Source of the DNA: a virus | Virus record (IMG/VR): IMGVR_UViG_3300032331_003094 | Coordinates: 18,213-82,212 of that record | Length of the DNA stretch: 64,000 bases | Reading direction: 5' to 3' (one strand) | In this document: in pieces, positions 2,268-32,508 of the stretch | Layout: the number at the start of each line of letters is the position of its first letter | Position numbering within the stretch: position 1 is the stretch's first letter | Translations under genes and position numbers: made by a program | Notes under the pieces: model-generated | What the model saw: only the letters and a program-made list of their open reading frames with translations | The model's database searches: none | Told to the model about the DNA's origin: nothing

Positions 2268-3275
2268 TTATTTGAGGCCTTGTTGCATGTATGCTTGCCG
2301 CAGGAATGCACTATCTTTGGCTACCTTGGCAAAGTCTGGTGCCGAGAAAAGCTGTTGGCCATACGATGCTTTGATCATACCTTCAGATAAAGGTTGTTGT
2401 ACGGCACCAGGATTGAAGACTTGGGGTGTTGTGGACACCATGCCAACACCTGGGATGGGAGTACCAAATGTCTGTTGGTAGTCCATGGTCATCGGTGTTG
2501 AGACCGCGCTAGTGGCATCAAATTGATTTGTGGGCATTGGTAAACCACCTAAGGGAGAACCGCCTGCATTAGACATGCCAGGAGCGGTGCGTGATTCTGC
2601 GTACCCCATTTGACCGGACTTAAGTTTAGCGGCCAGTAACGGATTAGTTTGCGCCCAGATTTCTAAACCAATGCGTTGTTTTTCAGCAGGGCTAGCGGCA
2701 GTGTTGTACTGCTTGGTTAAGTCAGCAACTTGATATTTTTGAAATAAAGGATTTTGTGCGGTTTGTTGAGCAATACGAGCTTTTTCTACTTCGTAATTAC
2801 GATCTAAAACTGCATTATCTCTTGTATTTTTTTGTGGAAAATATTTACTAACTGCTTGAGCACTTTGCACTAAATCTGCGCCCGTAACAGGTTGGTTTGG
2901 ATTAAATCCAGGGGGGTTGTATTGCTCCAGCCTTGTGCCACCTGCTGCTGTTGGTAAAGGGTTATGTCCACCTAAAAGCGAATTCATAAAACGCCCTGGA
3001 GCCGAAAGTGTTTCACCAACACGATCAGTAAAGAGTTGCCCTTGAGGAGTTTTGCGGAATCCGGTCCAGGCTTCGGCACCAGCTTGAATTACAGGTGCTA
3101 AGACACTTGCGGTACCAAGACTGCCCAGAATACTACCAACTCCTCCAATACGGCTTACTGGTCTATTTGGAATTGCCCTTCCTGCAGGGCCAGACTGTGC
3201 TCTTAGTTGTTCCATGCGAATATCGTATGGCGTGGGAGCATTTCGACCGAATGTTACATTAGCCATTACCGCCAA
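2268..3275 (-). CDS. Putative internal virion protein
   Basis: 335 aa low-complexity G/A/Q-rich ORF in the structural module. Confidence 0.55.
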   Translation of the reverse strand: MAVMANVTFGRNAPTPYDIRMEQLRAQSGPAGRAIPNRPVSRIGGVGSILGSLGTASVLAPVIQAGAEAWTGFRKTPQGQLFTDRVGETLSAPGRFMNSLLGGHNPLPTAAGGTRLEQYNPPGFNPNQPVTGADLVQSAQAVSKYFPQKNTRDNAVLDRNYEVEKARIAQQTAQNPLFQKYQVADLTKQYNTAASPAEKQRIGLEIWAQTNPLLAAKLKSGQMGYAESRTAPGMSNAGGSPLGGLPMPTNQFDATSAVSTPMTMDYQQTFGTPIPGVGMVSTTPQVFNPGAVQQPLSEGMIKASYGQQLFSAPDFAKVAKDSAFLRQAYMQQGLK

Positions 3276-5861: not shown

Positions 5862-8742
5862 TCAAACGATGCCGTCATCTTGGATGAAGCTAAAGCCGGT
5901 GGTAACGAAATCTTTGTTCAGGATTTCAAAACCAGCGTACAATTGCCAAATCAGGATGATGAAGCGGCTGAAGTCATCGTTGTTGTTGATCAACACCTGG
6001 GCGTTAGGACCGCCGATGCCGACGCCGATGGCTTGGGGACCGAAGAAGTAACCTTGAGCAACTTCTTGGGTGGAGTAGTTGGAACCACCGTCAAAAGATG
6101 CACTCAGGGTCTTGGTGGGGAAGTTGGTCGATTCGAAGAACTTCACACCTTCAAACTGCACGCCGGTAGGCATAACAGGTTCACCAGCCAGGAAATAACC
6201 TTGGCCAGCTTGGGGACCCATGTAGAAGCTGGAGTTGTTGGGCATCGCAGGGTTGCCCATGTACATCCCCTGACCGGGATTACCAGCGTAACGAGCGATC
6301 TCACGGAAGTCAGGATCACGCCGCAGGTGCAGCATGAAAGTAGGATCGCAGATGCAACGATACAGACCATCGGAATAGGTCGGCACGTTACGCTTGCGCA
6401 AGTCTTTAACAACGTTCAGTAAGTCAGTACGGACTTGGAACTGTTGAACTTGAGCACCATATTCAGTGGAAGTGTAGGAAACACGACCGGAAGAATCTTT
6501 AGCTTTGTTACCAGCGAAGTAGTAACCACCTTGGGTGGTAGAAGCTTGGCCATTGGCTTCAGCTTTGGACAGTTCGTCAATGAAGACGCGGTCACGCCAC
6601 CGACGATAGTCATCCAGCAGGGTGAGGCTACCGATGGACTGGTGGAACATATTCAGGTTACCGGTATCCAGCAGCAGACGCTGGGCGGTAATCAGGGTTT
6701 CACGAGCAATCTTGAAGGTCGAAGGCTGGGTCGGATCGCCCGGGTCCGCAGGACCGGTGTATTCCTTAAGCACCACCAGGACTTTCTCCTTGGTGATGTT
6801 ACGGCTATTGGCGGTACCGATGGTTTGGTCGGCAATACGCTCGCGGCTATCCTTCGTACCAGGGGTTCCCCAGAACTTGTACAGGTGTTATCCCAAAGGC
6901 TCTTTATCCTTTGGTTCTTACGGTTTATCATCCCGTAAGTTCAGACTATATCATCAAACAATTACTGATTGTTTGTCCTGCGCTCGTGCCCTCTTATCGT
7001 CTTCATCTGCAAAAGCAATGTTAAGACTCGCTGCGTATGTTTCAGAATTTTTAGTTCTGTTTTTATAACGCAGGGTCACTTTATTTTGTAACGTTGAGTG
7101 CATGTGGGGCTTTAGTAACGTTACAAAATCAGGCATCTCTCCACTTAATATTCTTAAACGATAGTGCGCTCTATCTAAATAGAGTTTTGGATTTACGTTG
7201 GCAATATCATGAATCCAAGAGGCAATTATTTTTGCTTCTTGTTCCATGCAGTAAGTAGCAAGTAGGCCAACATTGTTGGAACTAACCACGCAACCGTCAT
7301 CCATCCAAAAAACAGCTAACGCTTCCAGTCCTAAATCACATAAGTAATCTTTGGAAAAAAGTTTTTTACCTTTTGGATAAAACTGTTCCCTCAATGGAAC
7401 CAGTAATTTACTGGTAACCATAGACTGGCAAGAATAATAAGTTTTCAAGGTGCGCTTATCGTAAACCTCTCTTGAATTTACTTTTCCGTTTGTACCAAGT
7501 TCTTGATTAATTTTGGTCATTTTCCACTCTAAAAACTGTTTTTGTTTTTGAGAGTGTGTAAAAGATAAGTAACAAGTGTTCTTACCTTTTGGATAACCTA
7601 AACACCCGTCGCCAAGAGTACAGGCTTTGGAAAAGGAGAGGCTCACTGTGTGACCAAGGGTAGTCGTTGGACCTTCCGACCATTTCTGGGCGGCTTGGCT
7701 GCTGATTGCCCAATGCTAACGCATCGAAGGGTTTCCAGCAATTCACAGGATTTAAAGACCGCTACAAACTCAACGGTCTAATTGAACGGTTTGACCAGGC
7801 TGGCGGGTGAAGTCGTGGACAACCACGGGCTCTACTGCCATTTCGGCAATGTAGGCGGGGTGGGGACGATAGAGTTCCGCACCCAAGATTTTTGGAAAAT
7901 CGTTCTCCTGGTCTCTAGTTTCTTAGAGGGGTGGACTATCTCTTCATCCCTGTGGGATGCCGGACGCTAAATCTGGTATTACGTAACAAGTGCGTGTTAC
8001 ACCCAGTAGTCTCTGCACGTTCCAATCACGGTCTTGATTGGCTTCGCTCAGGATTACCCTCGGCTTTACGTTAGGGCTTCCCTGAATTCATCCGGTTTGC
8101 ACTCATCAATTGCTCGATGAGGTGACAACGTTGAGCGTTCAGTTGAGGCATGCTATGCTTTGGAAAAATGTTGATAAACAACATGGAACCAAAACTTGTA
8201 CCTGGGTTTGGTAACCTTTACTTAACGGAAGACGGTCGAGCTTTCAAGAAGAAACTTAATGAACAGGATCAAGAAGAACTTGAAGAACTTCCTATTAGTT
8301 CGACCAGTGTTTATGACAGGGTTTCAGTTCTTGTAGATGGAAGAAAGAAACGCTTTCACTTACACGTGTTAATGGCAATTGCTTTTCTTGGGTTAGACCT
8401 AAGAGCCCATGGCAATCATAATTTTTCTCTTCAGGTAAATCATTTAGATAACAACAAGCGAAATAATCGACTTGATAATCTGGAAATCGTTACCAAACAA
8501 GAGAACTTAACGAAGGCTTGGGAATCTGGTTGTTACCAAAATAATGGTTTTGCCAGTAAAGGGAAACCGAAGAAGTCTTTAAGAAAGTTTTCTTCGGAAG
8601 ACGTGATGCAAATTAAAGCTTTGAAGGAGGCTGGGCTTTCATATCGAAAGATTGCCGAAAAGTTCAACTGCAATCACGGAGCTATTTACCAAATCCTAAA
8701 AGGGCATACCTACCAGGATCTGAACTAGCTATCAATAAACAC
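5862..8742 (-). CDS. Major capsid protein, spliced: join(8742..8731, 7904..7773, 6881..5862), 387 aa
   Basis: GGAGG RBS, GTG start; exons join in frame as MFID|NDFPKILGAELYRPH...VQLDR|YKFWGTPGTKDSRE...VLKEYTGP; lies after portal and scaffold; highly expressed codon bias. Confidence 0.9.
6882..7772 (-). mobile_element. Group I intron 2 of the capsid gene (IA-like, 891 nt)
   Basis: 5' exon ends U (GACCGU); IGS UUGUAGCGGUC pairs both exons; P GAAUUGCUGGAAA, Q AAUCAGCAGC, R CAACGACUAC, S GAUAUAGUC; P3 UCCUGUG/CGCAGGA; terminal G at 6882. Confidence 0.92.
6954..7646 (-). CDS. Intron-encoded LAGLIDADG homing endonuclease (two-motif, I-SceI-like)
   Basis: ACTLGDGCL and LAVFWMDDG motifs; AT-rich; inserted between P7 and P3' and overlapping P3'/P8/S. 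Confidence 0.88.
   Translation of the reverse strand: MSLSFSKACTLGDGCLGYPKGKNTCYLSFTHSQKQKQFLEWKMTKINQELGTNGKVNSREVYDKRTLKTYYSCQSMVTSKLLVPLREQFYPKGKKLFSKDYLCDLGLEALAVFWMDDGCVVSSNNVGLLATYCMEQEAKIIASWIHDIANVNPKLYLDRAHYRLRILSGEMPDFVTLLKPHMHSTLQNKVTLRYKNRTKNSETYAASLNIAFADEDDKRARAQDKQSVIV
8131..8159 (+). promoter_or_regulatory. Putative sigma70-type promoter for the antisense HNH gene
   Basis: TTGAGC-17 nt-TATGCT, 23 nt before ATG 8183. Confidence 0.5.
8183..8728 (+). CDS. Intron-encoded HNH homing endonuclease with C-terminal HTH, antisense to the host gene
   Basis: FHLHVLMAIAF...VNHLDNNKRNNRLDNLEIVTKQEN; AGLSYRKIAEKFNC HTH; the ORF track starts at 8150 but 8183 is the more likely start. Confidence 0.88.
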   Translation: MEPKLVPGFGNLYLTEDGRAFKKKLNEQDQEELEELPISSTSVYDRVSVLVDGRKKRFHLHVLMAIAFLGLDLRAHGNHNFSLQVNHLDNNKRNNRLDNLEIVTKQENLTKAWESGCYQNNGFASKGKPKKSLRKFSSEDVMQIKALKEAGLSYRKIAEKFNCNHGAIYQILKGHTYQDLN

Positions 8743-8895
8743 TTTGGTTTATCCTCCAGTGTCTTGTTTTTATTCGGGTGAAAGAACGGACCGAAGTCCT
8801 TTCTTATCTAAAATTTTAGCAGTTGATAATTTATGTGTGAATACATACTAAAAACCAGGCAGTAAATAAATACCACCTGGTTTAAAGTTTGAATA

Positions 8896-9918
8896 TCACT
8901 CCATTACAAACAGTTTGTTTGCAACGGTTCCGGGTTGAGCTTGATTCAGAACACGCCAGGCGTTCTGGGGATCACGGTTCATCACTTCACTGAAACTACC
9001 CCAGAAGTTTTCGGGTTGCTGGGGGCCAGCAGCGTTGGGGGGAGCCGGAAGATTGGCAATACCACCATTGATGGGCTGAGTGCGATAACCACGGGATTCG
9101 AGGTCGGCTTCGCTTTCGTACACGGGGTACGGACCTTCAGGACCAAAGAAACGCAGCGTGTAATCGCTGAGAACATCAGGATTGGTCAGGATTTCGTTAT
9201 AAGCCAGATTCTCTTGGTGCTCATTGACCGAGAAGCTGGCAAAACGTGCCATCACATCATTGGCTTGGGTGCCCCAGGCCACTGCGCTATCCAGCATCCC
9301 TTCAAGTTGAAGGGCGTAATTATTTAGAATTGCCGGAGCTTCTACCCCGAACGCGTCGAACACCTGACGGCTTTCGTTGCTCAGGTTGTAGTAATCCGCG
9401 ATTGCCCGGTCCGTTGCCAGGGCTTGCTCCTCCGACGAAAGCGTCGAAGAGGTTTGGGAATAGCTGGGAGAGTATGCCGGGTTGAGATATGAGGTCGGCA
9501 TCCCCGATTGTTGCGTAGCTGGGGCGCTTGGAGTCCCAAAGTTGGCCGGGGCGTACTGAGGAGTCGTCGTCGACGGTTGACCCTGGAAGGGGGATTGGAC
9601 TGGTGAGCTCAGCAGGCCCACTACCTTGTTGAACGCCGATTCCCAAGGGTTGCTCACTGGTGCTTCCGCTGGCGCCGCCACCGAATAGTTCGGTTGGGAT
9701 TGGGGGGCGTACTGAATAGGGGCGGATTGGTAGCTGGTAGTCGCTTGAGGTATCGCTTGGGGGTAGCTGGTACCCACCTGATACGCCACCGGAGCCGCCT
9801 GCTGGTAGCTCGGGGCTGGTGCTGCCACTGGTGCCGGAGCTGCCATCACGTAGCTGCTGGGTGCTACTGACGGTGCTTGGCTCGTCTGTGGGGTCGATTG
9901 GACGGTAGCGTCCTGCAT
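8896..9918 (-). CDS. Putative capsid scaffolding protein
   Basis: P/Q/A/S-rich N-terminus, between portal and major capsid, AAGGAG RBS. Confidence 0.7.
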   Translation of the reverse strand: MQDATVQSTPQTSQAPSVAPSSYVMAAPAPVAAPAPSYQQAAPVAYQVGTSYPQAIPQATTSYQSAPIQYAPQSQPNYSVAAPAEAPVSNPWESAFNKVVGLLSSPVQSPFQGQPSTTTPQYAPANFGTPSAPATQQSGMPTSYLNPAYSPSYSQTSSTLSSEEQALATDRAIADYYNLSNESRQVFDAFGVEAPAILNNYALQLEGMLDSAVAWGTQANDVMARFASFSVNEHQENLAYNEILTNPDVLSDYTLRFFGPEGPYPVYESEADLESRGYRTQPINGGIANLPAPPNAAGPQQPENFWGSFSEVMNRDPQNAWRVLNQAQPGTVANKLFVME

Positions 9919-11668
9919 AACTCATCTCCTTTTGTAATGCTTCTAAGGTTCGATACAGATAGGGTGTAAGGTCCAGCCTTGGATCTGCAGCCATCGGAAG
10001 ATCCGGTGACTCTGGGTGGGGGGTCTGCATCATTCCACCCACCAGGCGAGCAAACTGCGAGAACGCATTCTGCAATTCGCCTACCATCCTGAACGGGAAA
10101 CCGCTTAACATAGCGGCTCGTTCTTCATCCGTCTTAGACGGAAATAAGAACTTCAGTGCTTCAATGCTATCAACACCTAATTCTTGTAGGTTTCTTACAA
10201 CGATAGAGTTGTTTAAAACGTCTTGAGTTGACTCTTCATAAACAGGTCCAGTCCAACGCCACAAGACGGTTAAGTCCCCATCGGGAATAAGGCCTGTTAC
10301 TCCGGGGGGAATAATTTTTGTCTGCATGCAGGCCATCATGATTTGCTTGACCCTTTCGTCAAAACCAATCATTGCTTGCTTGTACAAATCATTTTCTTCT
10401 GGCGGTGCATCTTCTGGCGGTTCAATTGGTTCTTCCAGGCCGGATGCTTTGGCTAAGGTTGCGCGGAACAAACGTTCCTCTTGGAAAATAATTAACTCAA
10501 GACAACGTGCAATACCGTAAGAATAAATGGCAGTTGCTTTTTTCTTTGCTGTGGCTGATACACGACCAAATAATGATTTGTATTCAGTTGCAGTTACGCC
10601 AGCTGAAATGGATAGTTCATCGACACCACCAAGAGCTGTACGAATCTCTTCTCGAAATTGGCGAGCAAATGCGTTTTGATCACCAGTGATAGCATCTGGA
10701 ACAATGTAACCAACACGGTCGTTTGGCTCCAGGTTTGCAATAACGCGTGGTACACGAATCTGACCATCGATTCCGCGACCGATTGGATCTTGTTTAAATG
10801 TTGACCTACTTAAAGAAGACAAGCTGCCAAACCCTGAGTTGGCTGCAATCGATGGACGTTGAACTGTAGTGTCTGCCCCGGACTCCATAAGGTCTGTTTT
10901 GGGACGAGATGAAAGAAGGGTTGGATTACCAAAGAACTGAACGTTTTTGCGCATGGTGCGAACCAATTCGTCGTGCACGACGATGTGGCTGGCCATGGCG
11001 TCAAATTCGCCAGTACCTTCAGTTGAAAACCCTTTGGGGTTGTTAAAGATTTCAACGCAAGGAATAAAGCCCAAGCTGTTTTTAAATGTTTTGGTTTTAC
11101 CAAGGGCTGTATAGTTTGGTAAATCAAACGACATCTCACTTTCCGAGTGAGTTTCTTCAATGGTACGTCGTTTAATTGAAAGCCTAATAAAACGTTTGGC
11201 GCCTTGGCTGCCAAGTGTTGCAGTCCCGGTAAGATTGGAAACATTTACATTGTCACCAAAGCCATTACCTTGTTTGACTTTATAGCTGTAGATGATTACA
11301 ACTTCATCTAACTCACCATCTACGTTGTAGTAGCTGCGATATTCGTGACTACGGAAGTAATACAGGCGGTAATTTGATTTGGTTGGACGAATATAAAAAA
11401 TGCCTTTGCCGTCACATAGGAAATAATCCCAGATTGAATCCAGGCGCACATCAAGTTGGTTATATTTGATTACACGGTCGAGAAAGTCTTTGCGCTGGTT
11501 GCCAAAGTTATCTTGAGTTGGAAAAAATTCCACACCTTGACGAATCCCAAACATTTTCATTTGGGAAAGATGTGACCCCACAATCATGGTGTCAACATGA
11601 GAACTAGGATCTTTCTCGACTGCCGCGTCGATAATTTCTTTTAAACGCGCCTTGGTATCAACAGCCAT
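9320..11668 (-). CDS. Portal protein (C-terminal 200 codons overlap the scaffold gene)
   Basis: Large ORF between TerL and scaffold/capsid; LGFIPCVEIFN motif typical of portals. Confidence 0.75.
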   Translation of the reverse strand: MAVDTKARLKEIIDAAVEKDPSSHVDTMIVGSHLSQMKMFGIRQGVEFFPTQDNFGNQRKDFLDRVIKYNQLDVRLDSIWDYFLCDGKGIFYIRPTKSNYRLYYFRSHEYRSYYNVDGELDEVVIIYSYKVKQGNGFGDNVNVSNLTGTATLGSQGAKRFIRLSIKRRTIEETHSESEMSFDLPNYTALGKTKTFKNSLGFIPCVEIFNNPKGFSTEGTGEFDAMASHIVVHDELVRTMRKNVQFFGNPTLLSSRPKTDLMESGADTTVQRPSIAANSGFGSLSSLSRSTFKQDPIGRGIDGQIRVPRVIANLEPNDRVGYIVPDAITGDQNAFARQFREEIRTALGGVDELSISAGVTATEYKSLFGRVSATAKKKATAIYSYGIARCLELIIFQEERLFRATLAKASGLEEPIEPPEDAPPEENDLYKQAMIGFDERVKQIMMACMQTKIIPPGVTGLIPDGDLTVLWRWTGPVYEESTQDVLNNSIVVRNLQELGVDSIEALKFLFPSKTDEERAAMLSGFPFRMVGELQNAFSQFARLVGGMMQTPHPESPDLPMAADPRLDLTPYLYRTLEALQKEMSYAGRYRPIDPTDEPSTVSSTQQLRDGSSGTSGSTSPELPAGGSGGVSGGYQLPPSDTSSDYQLPIRPYSVRPPIPTELFGGGASGSTSEQPLGIGVQQGSGPAELTSPIPLPGSTVDDDSSVRPGQLWDSKRPSYATIGDADLISQPGILSQLFPNLFDAFVGGASPGNGPGNRGLLQPEQRKPSGVRRVRGRSSGNSK

Positions 11669-18153: not shown

Positions 18154-19023
18154 TCAGATACCGCGAACGCCACCGGTTTGTAATACGGAAGCAGCATAAG
18201 GATTAGAAGTCAAGATGTCACGGGTAGTAGCACCAGCTTGTTGTTGGGCGCCCGACGCTAATTGACCAGCAATGATCTGTTGGTTTAATTGACCCATTAA
18301 CTGAGCATTTTGTTGATTCAGTTGCATTTGACGAGTCTTATCTGCGTCTTTATATTTTTGTAAAATTTGATAATTTTGAGTTAGATACTGACCAGGGATG
18401 TTAACTCCCATTTCCCTAGCCATTTGTAAATATTGTGCTTGTGCTTTGTCAGAAACCGTGCCGGGTTCAGCCCCTGTACCAGCAGCTTGTCCTGATTCAC
18501 GTTGTGCACCCGCTACGGCACTCACGACACCTTGCGTAGCAGCTTGAGCACCACCAATAAGTTGATTACCCAATGCAGAAACACCTTTACCTAACTGACT
18601 GGCGATTGGAGCGGCAAGTAAACCACCTGCGAGTTGTACGGCGCCACGTACCAAGGGTCCACCAGGGACCATTGCACTTAAGTTTTGAATTCCTTTACCA
18701 CCTAAAGCAGTAAGGCCAAGGGTTGCTAACCCGGCCATAGGATCTGTTGGAAATTGTTGAAGGGCGGCTGCAGCGCCAGGACCATAGCGAGCGGTTCTAG
18801 ATGCTAAGGTACGTGCGCCACCAGGGATTCCTTCAGCTGTTTGAGTTAGGTTTGAAACATTTTGAAGCAGCCCATCAAACGGACCAGCAGGATTAACAGG
18901 CGAAACAATATCAGCTACTGTACGATTTCTAGGATCAAGAACAGTATTTTTTGCACTAATACGATCAATAGGAGATGATGGTCCCATCATCGGATCTACT
19001 GGAAAAGCGTAAGAACCTGCCAT
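18154..19023 (-). CDS. Putative internal virion protein (G/A-rich)
   Basis: 289 aa with glycine-zipper-like segments. Confidence 0.55.
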   Translation of the reverse strand: MAGSYAFPVDPMMGPSSPIDRISAKNTVLDPRNRTVADIVSPVNPAGPFDGLLQNVSNLTQTAEGIPGGARTLASRTARYGPGAAAALQQFPTDPMAGLATLGLTALGGKGIQNLSAMVPGGPLVRGAVQLAGGLLAAPIASQLGKGVSALGNQLIGGAQAATQGVVSAVAGAQRESGQAAGTGAEPGTVSDKAQAQYLQMAREMGVNIPGQYLTQNYQILQKYKDADKTRQMQLNQQNAQLMGQLNQQIIAGQLASGAQQQAGATTRDILTSNPYAASVLQTGGVRGI

Positions 19024-32223: not shown

Positions 32224-32442
32224 ATGACTGACTACACTGATGAGCAACTACTTGCTATGGCCATGGCCAATCTTGGTGAGTACATTCATGACAACTCACC
32301 GCATTACGTTTTAATGCAAAATGATCCTCGCAACGAGGATGACTACGATAGTTGGCAGTACGGAATGGAAGTATTGCCTCATGATCACACTTGGCAACAC
32401 ACATCTATTGATGTGAGTGTAAGTCCAAGTGAGCCCGAGTAG
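32224..32442 (+). CDS. Small acidic protein
   Basis: 72 aa; 3' end overlaps the tRNA. Confidence 0.55.
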   Translation: MTDYTDEQLLAMAMANLGEYIHDNSPHYVLMQNDPRNEDDYDSWQYGMEVLPHDHTWQHTSIDVSVSPSEPE

Positions 32443-32508
32443 CCCAGCGGAAGAGGCAAACGACTTAAAATCGTTCCAGCGTGAGTTCGAATCTCACCTC
32501 GGGTACCA
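32433..32508 (+). tRNA. trnL: tRNA-Leu(UAA), CCA encoded, short variable loop
   Basis: Acceptor GCCCGAG/CTCGGGT, anticodon arm AACGA-CTTAAAA-TCGTT, T arm GTGAG-TTCGAAT-CTCAC, ACCA end. Confidence 0.92.

Follow-up and report, generated by a model that had tools for sequence, protein, structure and literature searches.

An S-EIV1-like freshwater cyanophage whose major capsid gene is divided by two putatively mobile group I introns

How does a phage make its most abundant virion protein when the gene that encodes it is interrupted twice, the first time only 12 nt after its start? The question arises at a locus on the minus strand of IMG/VR virus record IMGVR_UViG_3300032331_003094, from which a stretch of 64,000 nt was analysed (positions 18,213 to 82,212 of the record, here termed the window, along which all coordinates are counted). 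The window comes from a virus record of 82,212 bp that has direct terminal repeats and is rated complete, so that it is unlikely to be a dead fragment; the source phage is an S-EIV1-like freshwater cyanophage. An original prediction took a 304-amino-acid (aa) open reading frame (ORF) at 5862..6776 to be only the distal part of the third exon of a major capsid gene, with two smaller exons and two group I introns before it. Our analysis makes it very probable that an HK97-fold major capsid gene (minus strand, 8742..5862) is indeed present here and is split by two mobile group I introns of the IA architecture that is typical of phages.

The coordinates of the 304-aa ORF were confirmed, and its place within exon 3 follows from the exon borders (Table 1). 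When the three exons are joined by script, they yield 387 aa and a stop codon in one frame, and 373 of 385 positions are identical to the closest uninterrupted homologue. The predicted N-terminus, VFIDNDFPK...LDRYKFWG, is present as the start of hundreds of uninterrupted homologues, including that of phage S-EIV1, and the comparison that could have overturned the exon assignment therefore left it standing. Exon 3 alone, used as a query, retrieved 794 proteins; hundreds of homologues share 85-97% identity with its product, and among the top matches the majority have 387 aa and begin V/MFIDNDFPKILGAELYRPHPAYIAEMAVEPVVVHDFTRQPGQTVQLDRYKFWGTPG. Intronless homologues of 387 aa begin VFIDNDFPKILGAELYRPHPAYIAEMAVEPVVVHDFTRQPGQTVQLDRYKFWGTPG, and both junctions are exact at the protein level. 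In-frame stops follow both 5' splice sites, AGC TAG after exon 1 and TGA after exon 2.

Synechococcus phage S-EIV1, the only cultured relative (85% identity), has an uninterrupted, GTG-initiated capsid ORF of 383 codons with the same start. In its record (KJ410740.1, 60784-62010) this intact ORF is left unannotated, and the locus carries a minus-strand coding sequence and a short plus-strand coding sequence that are small and unrelated. These two entries, together with capsid versions of 362 and 377 aa in relatives, bear out the expectation that automatic annotation would truncate the gene.

That the product is the predicted capsid protein is indicated by its family profile and by its modelled fold. 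The full-length homologue matches phrog_1357 ('major head protein') with E 3.7e-16; a Pfam profile search returned no family for the capsid protein, and a PDB sequence search nothing relevant to it. The fold was modelled with AlphaFold from 30 diverse relatives (pLDDT 79, pTM 0.78). When the model was compared with known structures by Foldseek, the best matches were phage capsids, namely those of the cyanophages P-SCSP1u and Pan3, of Ralstonia phage GP4, of HK97 and of others (E 1e-12 to 1e-8, probability 1.00). Profile and model agree in identifying the product as a major capsid protein of predicted HK97 fold.

The exon borders were examined at the DNA level in 80 related loci from IMG/VR. 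The majority is intronless, with 12 nt between leader and exon 2; this spacing grows to 12 + 826 nt in twelve loci and to 12 + 256-276 nt in three others, and five further loci start within intron 1. Exons 2 and 3 abut everywhere except in two loci, which have 890-891 nt between them. What intron-bearing relatives have in addition is exactly 8730..7905 or 7772..6882. Because intronless DNA is contiguous at both exon junctions, where it reads ...GTGTTTATTGATAACGATTTTCC... and ...GACCGC↓TACAAG... (the arrow marks the junction), both boundaries are fixed to the nucleotide, with an ambiguity of 1 nt at the intron 1 boundary that is settled by the U/G rule.

Both introns are matched by the Rfam group I model RF00028 (Intron_gpI) at scores far beyond chance, as the original prediction had proposed to check. 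For intron 1 the match (8155..7912) covers the full model, positions 1-253, with 88.2 bits and E 3.6e-21, and passes the gathering score of 50 bits. The core of this intron was read from the cmscan alignment, RNAalifold and pair counts. In an alignment of 17 intron 1 cores, which are 94% identical, RNAalifold gives P2 with a GNRA loop, P3, P4, P5, P6/6a, a double hairpin between P7 and P3', P8 and P9, and with P7 added as a pseudoknot 99% of the cells hold standard pairs. Nine pairs are changed on both sides, against 4.6±1.2 in shuffled alignments (0 of 500 reach nine), and sliding the partners by 1-3 columns leaves at most one. The double hairpin, 38 nt long and located at alignment columns 152-185, is a hallmark of subgroup IA and holds three covarying pairs.

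The true 5' end of the intron 1 ribozyme, and with it P1, is revealed most clearly by forms that lack an ORF (loci L019, L034 and L075). The guide sequence is invariant in the 17 sequences, and P1 continues into an extended stem, GUUCAG 8725..8720 with CUGAAC 8142..8137, for which L034 has the compensatory GCUCAG/CUGAGC. This long-range P1 replaces the one proposed by cmscan (8151..8122), which includes three non-standard pairs. One further candidate was rejected. The segment 8184..8158 (ATGTTGTTTATCAAC...CCAAAG) was considered as a copy of the exon junction within intron 1, either a homing-site remnant or an alternative first exon. In a local-alignment test 24 of 500 shuffles were equal or better, so that the likeness is within chance, and the best match lay elsewhere (~8497..8482); the true P1, as the ORF-less forms reveal, uses 8129..8123.

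The RF00028 match on intron 2 (7782..7502; 39.4 bits, E 8.8e-8 in the 3.7-kb region and 1.5e-6 in the whole window) spans P1 to P7 and then fails, leaving unbridged an insert of ~640 nt with an ORF between P7 and P3'. Its structure was derived from a full-length alignment of eight sequences from the same capsid site, in which 98.4% of the cells are paired. Twelve pairs are changed on both sides (4.9±1.5 in shuffles, 0 of 500 as many), and at most two remain when the partners are slid. Three of the twelve lie in P10, where the guide shifts together with the start of exon 3, UACAA/UUGUA being replaced by UAUCG/CGAUA in L098. An earlier placement of P3' at GACGGG (~7607) was abandoned: that segment varies at synonymous positions, and the invariant CGCAGGA at 6982..6976 gives seven perfect pairs instead. 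The P3-P4 core of intron 2 is also found in an ORF-less intron of another phage (L084:5573-5784, with the same sequence in L086), which interrupts a ribonucleotide-reductase-like gene (...NPCGEITLRPSQFCNL↓) and scores 99 bits; the core family is thus common to unrelated genes.

The two introns therefore share a U·G pair where the 5' exon ends, a terminal G with a P10 pairing, the core helices P3-P8, the P3/P7 pseudoknot and J8/7 (Table 1). No variation occurs in P7 and J8/7, which agree with the consensus GAUGA.GAUAGUC. Both were assigned to subgroup IA by architecture only, and the position of the extra IA helices between P7 and P3' is occupied in intron 2 by its insert. The ribozyme cores show almost no variation, in contrast to the embedded ORFs, whose synonymous sites are saturated (dS ~1). 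Homologues, the covariance model, covariation and population data thus all support two group I introns with a 12-nt first exon, in-frame stops and guides that pair with both exons. The structural reading of the original prediction is supported accordingly; the prediction omitted the homing endonuclease gene that each intron carries.

In intron 1 the terminal loop of extended P1, ~570 nt long, codes for an HNH endonuclease on the opposite strand, and the stop codon of this ORF lies 2 nt from the 5' splice site, within the P1 sequence. The ORF matches Pfam HNH_3 (31.7 bits, cut-off 24.8), HTH_38 and phrog_59 (E 1.6e-28), and its only PDB relative is I-HmuI (1U3E; E 1.8e-4, residues 43-176). It is intact in all 12 full-length HNH-bearing loci examined, with a dN/dS of 0.10 among nine sequences. 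The gene is missing from the 256-278-nt forms of intron 1; that of L019 retains a few bases of the HNH-bearing loop, which suggests that it arose by deletion of the gene. The ORF of intron 2 runs on through P3' and P8 and ends in J8/7. It matches positions 9-168 of the 168 in Pfam LAGLIDADG_2 (78.7 bits, cut-off 25) as well as phrog_11023, a PDB sequence search returned nothing relevant for it, and it is intact, with a dN/dS of 0.11 (eight sequences, 28 pairs). Both endonuclease genes are under purifying selection.

How the introns are distributed among relatives points to mobility. The intron 1 family comprises 78 distinct sequences, all at this single capsid site, of which 52 have the HNH gene and 13 are ORF-less (258-278 nt), the rest being cut by contig ends. 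Both introns occur together also in the capsid genes of L034, L075, L083 and L090, and relatives' capsid genes carry none, either one, both or three introns. The case of three is L093:1516-3270, with three RF00028 matches in the capsid gene, two at the sites described here and a third (2908-3270, 66.6 bits) ~110 nt into exon 3. A capsid fragment of 330 aa from another relative (P0124), which follows the family for 213 residues and then continues as unrelated sequence, points to a possible further site of interruption, in a lineage more distantly related.

The exon sequence next to intron 2 changes with the intron. The last codon of exon 2 is CGU in all nine distinct intron 2 alleles, whereas the 116 intronless alleles have 108 CGC, three CGG, two AGG and only three CGU, so that the choice between the synonymous CGT and CGC follows the presence of intron 2 almost perfectly. 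Such a linkage would follow from a need for the splice-site U·G pair, from co-conversion of exon sequence during homing, or from the two together, and CGC alleles might be immune to the LAGLIDADG enzyme. Presence and absence at a fixed site, together with exon changes linked to the intron, give indirect support to the view that the introns are mobile homing elements.

From their structure and conservation, and from the precedent of mycobacteriophage LittleE described below, we infer that the introns are spliced and that they home; any account of how the antisense HNH gene is expressed is likewise an inference. The capsid pre-mRNA would be transcribed through both introns, each of which would fold, bind guanosine in P7 and excise itself by two transesterifications. 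For intron 1, P1 (UGAU/GUCA) would hold the 5' exon and P10 (AAC/GUU) the 3' exon; for intron 2 the corresponding pairings are GACCGU/GCGGUC and UACAA/UUGUA. Each P1 has the U·G wobble at the cut, and ligation would restore the reading frame of 387 codons. On unspliced RNA, ribosomes would be barred from the ribozyme cores by two stop codons, one located 3 nt into intron 1 and the other being the first codon of intron 2. During mixed infections, the endonucleases would cut or nick intronless capsid alleles and the intron would be copied in, and this would explain relatives with no intron, either, both or three.

Several observations weigh against this interpretation. The public metatranscriptome contigs examined contain no unambiguous spliced RNA of this genome. 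A consensus scan found no sigma-70-like promoter for the antisense HNH gene, the total number of matches being that expected from shuffles. P6a of intron 2 contains one non-standard pair in the lineage of the window. The score of intron 2 is below the RF00028 gathering score. We attribute this to the insert, since the same P3-P4 core reaches 99-115 bits in relatives without an ORF, and its membership of group I therefore rests on the splice site, P10 and the core helices. Lastly, the strands of P1 in HNH-bearing intron 1 are ~600 nt apart, with only four base pairs on the exon side, so that autonomous folding might be slow or need help.

The RNA record contains joints of the expected kind. Contigs of two metatranscriptome runs of one study, X16 and X20, connect 7904 with 8731 and so skip exactly 826 nt, each with only 30 nt on its shorter side and aligned at 90% similarity. 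Because intronless relatives are abundant and the flanks are so short, these joints cannot be assigned to this genotype and may equally stem from transcripts or DNA of intronless phages, and differences in depth between exons and introns are uninformative, intronless relatives being common. Another joint in X16, from 8166 to 7903 with five extra letters, could be traced to the wrong placement of a relative of the sequence that precedes the HNH start (compare L048). Separately, one RNA contig of X20 (depth 2.9, with 65 letters on one side and 96 on the other) joins the terminal G7905 to C8137, which lies 27-28 nt into the ORF-less form of intron 1; UGAA↓CGC, the site that would be attacked, is similar to UGAU↓AGC at the 5' splice site. 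This has the topology of a truncated group I intron circle and, coming from a single low-depth contig, is an unconfirmed hint.

Among the alternatives, the one that survives best accepts the group I introns as real and supposes that one or both are inefficient alone, so that a protein helper, either the LAGLIDADG protein acting as a maturase or an RNA chaperone of host or phage, gates capsid synthesis. The long-range, four-pair P1 of intron 1 and the low score of intron 2 speak for it, as does the overlap of the LAGLIDADG ORF with P3' and P8, an arrangement met in maturase-type proteins. We nevertheless judge it unlikely: all core helices are conserved and show covariation, intron 1 also occurs alongside its HNH form in ORF-less versions that do not differ in their core, and phage IA introns such as those of td and nrdB self-splice in vitro.

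A regulatory role for the introns is somewhat more doubtful still. Counted from the first base of the start codon, UGAU (8734..8731) is 6-9 nt away and so within the stretch that an initiating ribosome covers, and initiation and P1 formation may thus be mutually exclusive. Intron 1 splicing would then act as a kinetic gate on capsid synthesis, antisense transcription of the HNH gene would add control by RNA-RNA pairing, and the introns would set the timing or amount of capsid instead of being neutral passengers. The original prediction had likewise suggested that splicing limits or times capsid assembly; nothing that we found bears on or supports this, and it remains pure speculation.

It is quite improbable that the gene is broken, with at least one intron inactive in this genome, and that the window represents a defective or transient variant sustained by co-infecting intronless relatives. 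Such relatives were present as DNA in the source sample, where an X1 contig joins across intron 2, and the RNA contigs examined gave no direct proof of splicing. Against this, the two-intron architecture recurs in independent contigs (L034, L075, L083, L090 and L093), and the cores vary far less than synonymous sites do. The window, moreover, has no disrupted core pair of its own and keeps the splice-site U, and the genome is complete with terminal repeats. An assembly chimera of reads from different phages, conceivable in a metagenome with many close relatives, can be dismissed as next to negligible: X1 contigs are identical to the window over 6813..7929, which takes in intron 2 with its two exon borders, and over 8137..8735, which runs through the HNH gene as far as the 5' splice site, and more than 50 independent IMG/VR contigs have the same junctions.

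Table 1. Predicted elements of the split capsid gene and its leader (window coordinates; the arrow marks the splice site)
Feature	Position	Strand	Basis or remark
Promoter-like site TTCACA-17-TG-TAAAAT upstream of the capsid gene	8813..8841	-	Scan for the consensus, 10 of 12 positions matching
Shine-Dalgarno GGAGG of the capsid gene	8753..8757	-	Read in the sequence; kept in intronless and intron-bearing relatives
Exon 1, 12 nt, GTG start and 3 codons (V/M-F-I-D), GTG TTT ATT GAT	8731..8742	-	Abuts exon 2 in intronless loci; homologues start VFID/MFID
Intron 1, group I (IA-like), 826 nt	7905..8730	-	RF00028; exactly this stretch missing from intronless loci
Intron 1 P1 5' strand UGAU↓AGC, splice site after U8731	8728..8734	-	Pairs with GUUGUCA 8129..8123, including U8731·G8126
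HNH homing endonuclease gene, 181 aa from conserved ATG	8183..8728	+	Antisense to the capsid mRNA, in the extended-P1 loop
Intron 1 internal guide sequence GUUGUCA	8123..8129	-	GUCA with exon 1 UGAU (P1); GUU with exon 2 AAC (P10)
Intron 1 core	7912..8155	-	P2 8120..8103, P3 8095..8089/7966..7960, P4-P6
Intron 1 core, remaining elements	7912..8155	-	P7 8011..8007/7938..7934, P7.1/7.2, P8, P9, terminal G7905
Exon 2, 44 codons (NDFPK...QLDR)	7773..7904	-	Translation; identical to homologue residues 5-48
Intron 2, group I (IA-like, no P2), 891 nt	6882..7772	-	RF00028 5' half; missing from most relatives
Intron 2 internal guide sequence, P10 part UUGUA	7767..7763	-	Pairs with exon 3 UACAA 6881..6877
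Intron 2 internal guide sequence, P1 part GCGGUC	7762..7757	-	Pairs with exon 2 GACCGU 7778..7773, U7773·G7762
Intron 2 P3, UCCUGUG/CGCAGGA	7750..7744/6982..6976	-	8-sequence alignment
Intron 2 P7, GACUA/UAGUC	7665..7661/6948..6944	-	8-sequence alignment
Intron 2 P4-P6, P8 and J8/7 (AUGAUAUAGUC)	P8, 6975..6955	-	8-sequence alignment
LAGLIDADG homing endonuclease gene, 230 aa, GTG start	6954..7646	-	Between P7 (7665..7661) and P3' (6982..6976)
Intron 2 3' ribozyme part	6882..6982	-	P3', P8, J8/7, P9 6939..6917, P9.1 6914..6893, terminal G6882
Exon 3, 339 codons and stop, starts TAC AAG (YKFWGTPG...)	5862..6881	-	Translation

Directly upstream of the capsid gene are a portal-like gene (9320..11668; phrog_20475 and phrog_64) and a 340-aa ORF without family match (8896..9918), a scaffold by position only, and the two overlap by ~600 nt in different frames. 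Between the latter and the capsid gene, at 8813-8885, a hairpin is followed by a T run (ACCAGGTGG...CCTGGTTTTT) and then by the promoter-like site of Table 1 with its extended -10 element, and the capsid gene may have a transcription start of its own. That site is a lead only, since promoter-like sites in the region are as numerous as expected from shuffles. Elsewhere in the window, a tRNA gene lies on the plus strand at 32433-32505 (Rfam, 57 bits).

If the locus works as proposed, two RNA splicing events must precede synthesis of the most abundant virion protein in a freshwater and polar lineage of cyanophages that is widespread. Gene callers will therefore mis-annotate such loci, and surveys that use the capsid gene as a marker will miss or truncate these alleles. 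At two fixed sites, public metagenomes hold the full series of states, from no intron, through an intron without and with its endonuclease gene, to two or three introns. With hundreds of sequences available, the locus offers a natural system for the homing cycle, for co-conversion of flanking exon sequence (CGC/CGU) and for loss of endonuclease genes.

Many of these features have counterparts in well-studied phage introns. Those of T4 td, nrdB and sunY and of Twort orf142 belong to subgroup IA, have extra helices between P7 and P3', loop their endonuclease ORFs out of peripheral helices, have in-frame stops soon after the 5' splice site and vary in presence among relatives, and the three introns of Twort orf142 illustrate that several per gene are possible. 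Unlike the introns described here, those of T4 lie in genes of nucleotide metabolism and have their ORFs in the sense orientation. I-HmuI of Bacillus phage SPO1 resembles the intron 1 ORF in having an HNH motif followed by a C-terminal helix-turn-helix, but similarity is low and I-HmuI is sense-encoded in a DNA polymerase intron. In cyanophages, group I introns, some with endonuclease ORFs, are described in psbA (for example in S-PM2 and S-CBWM1; PMC8557907); psbA is a host-derived photosynthesis gene, not a virion gene, and those phages belong to another lineage. Jumbo gut phages have ~18 group I introns per genome (PMC12880540).

The rarity of capsid-gene introns implied by the original prediction was overstated, as spliced cases had been published. 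The major capsid gene of mycobacteriophage LittleE (gp13) has an intron of ~820 nt that is spliced in vivo, as established by RT-PCR and N-terminal protein sequencing (Pope et al. 2013, PMC3706429); its authors call the type unclear and most likely group I. Compared by architecture, not by sequence, the LittleE intron resembles those of the window in having a U before it and a G at its end, an endonuclease ORF on the opposite strand, relatives without the intron and an ORF-less copy elsewhere. It differs in that LittleE is an actinobacteriophage with a single intron, an antisense ORF of the LAGLIDADG type (HNH in the window) and a first exon that is not tiny. Major capsid protein (MCP) genes of crAss-like phages occur in up to five fragments, with introns that contain endonuclease domains and that were, as here, recognised against uninterrupted relatives (Yutin et al. 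2021, PMC7886860). Unlike the present case, these are gut Bacteroidetes phages, the introns were found via protein domains and not ribozyme structure, and no 12-nt exon was reported.

No paper on introns in S-EIV1-like phages was found in the literature searched, which does not cover every journal. With capsid-gene introns already known, the locus is a well-supported further example, marked by its tiny first exon, by rich polymorphism and by genes that contain two to three introns, and it extends such introns from actinobacteriophages and crAss-like phages to cyanophages.

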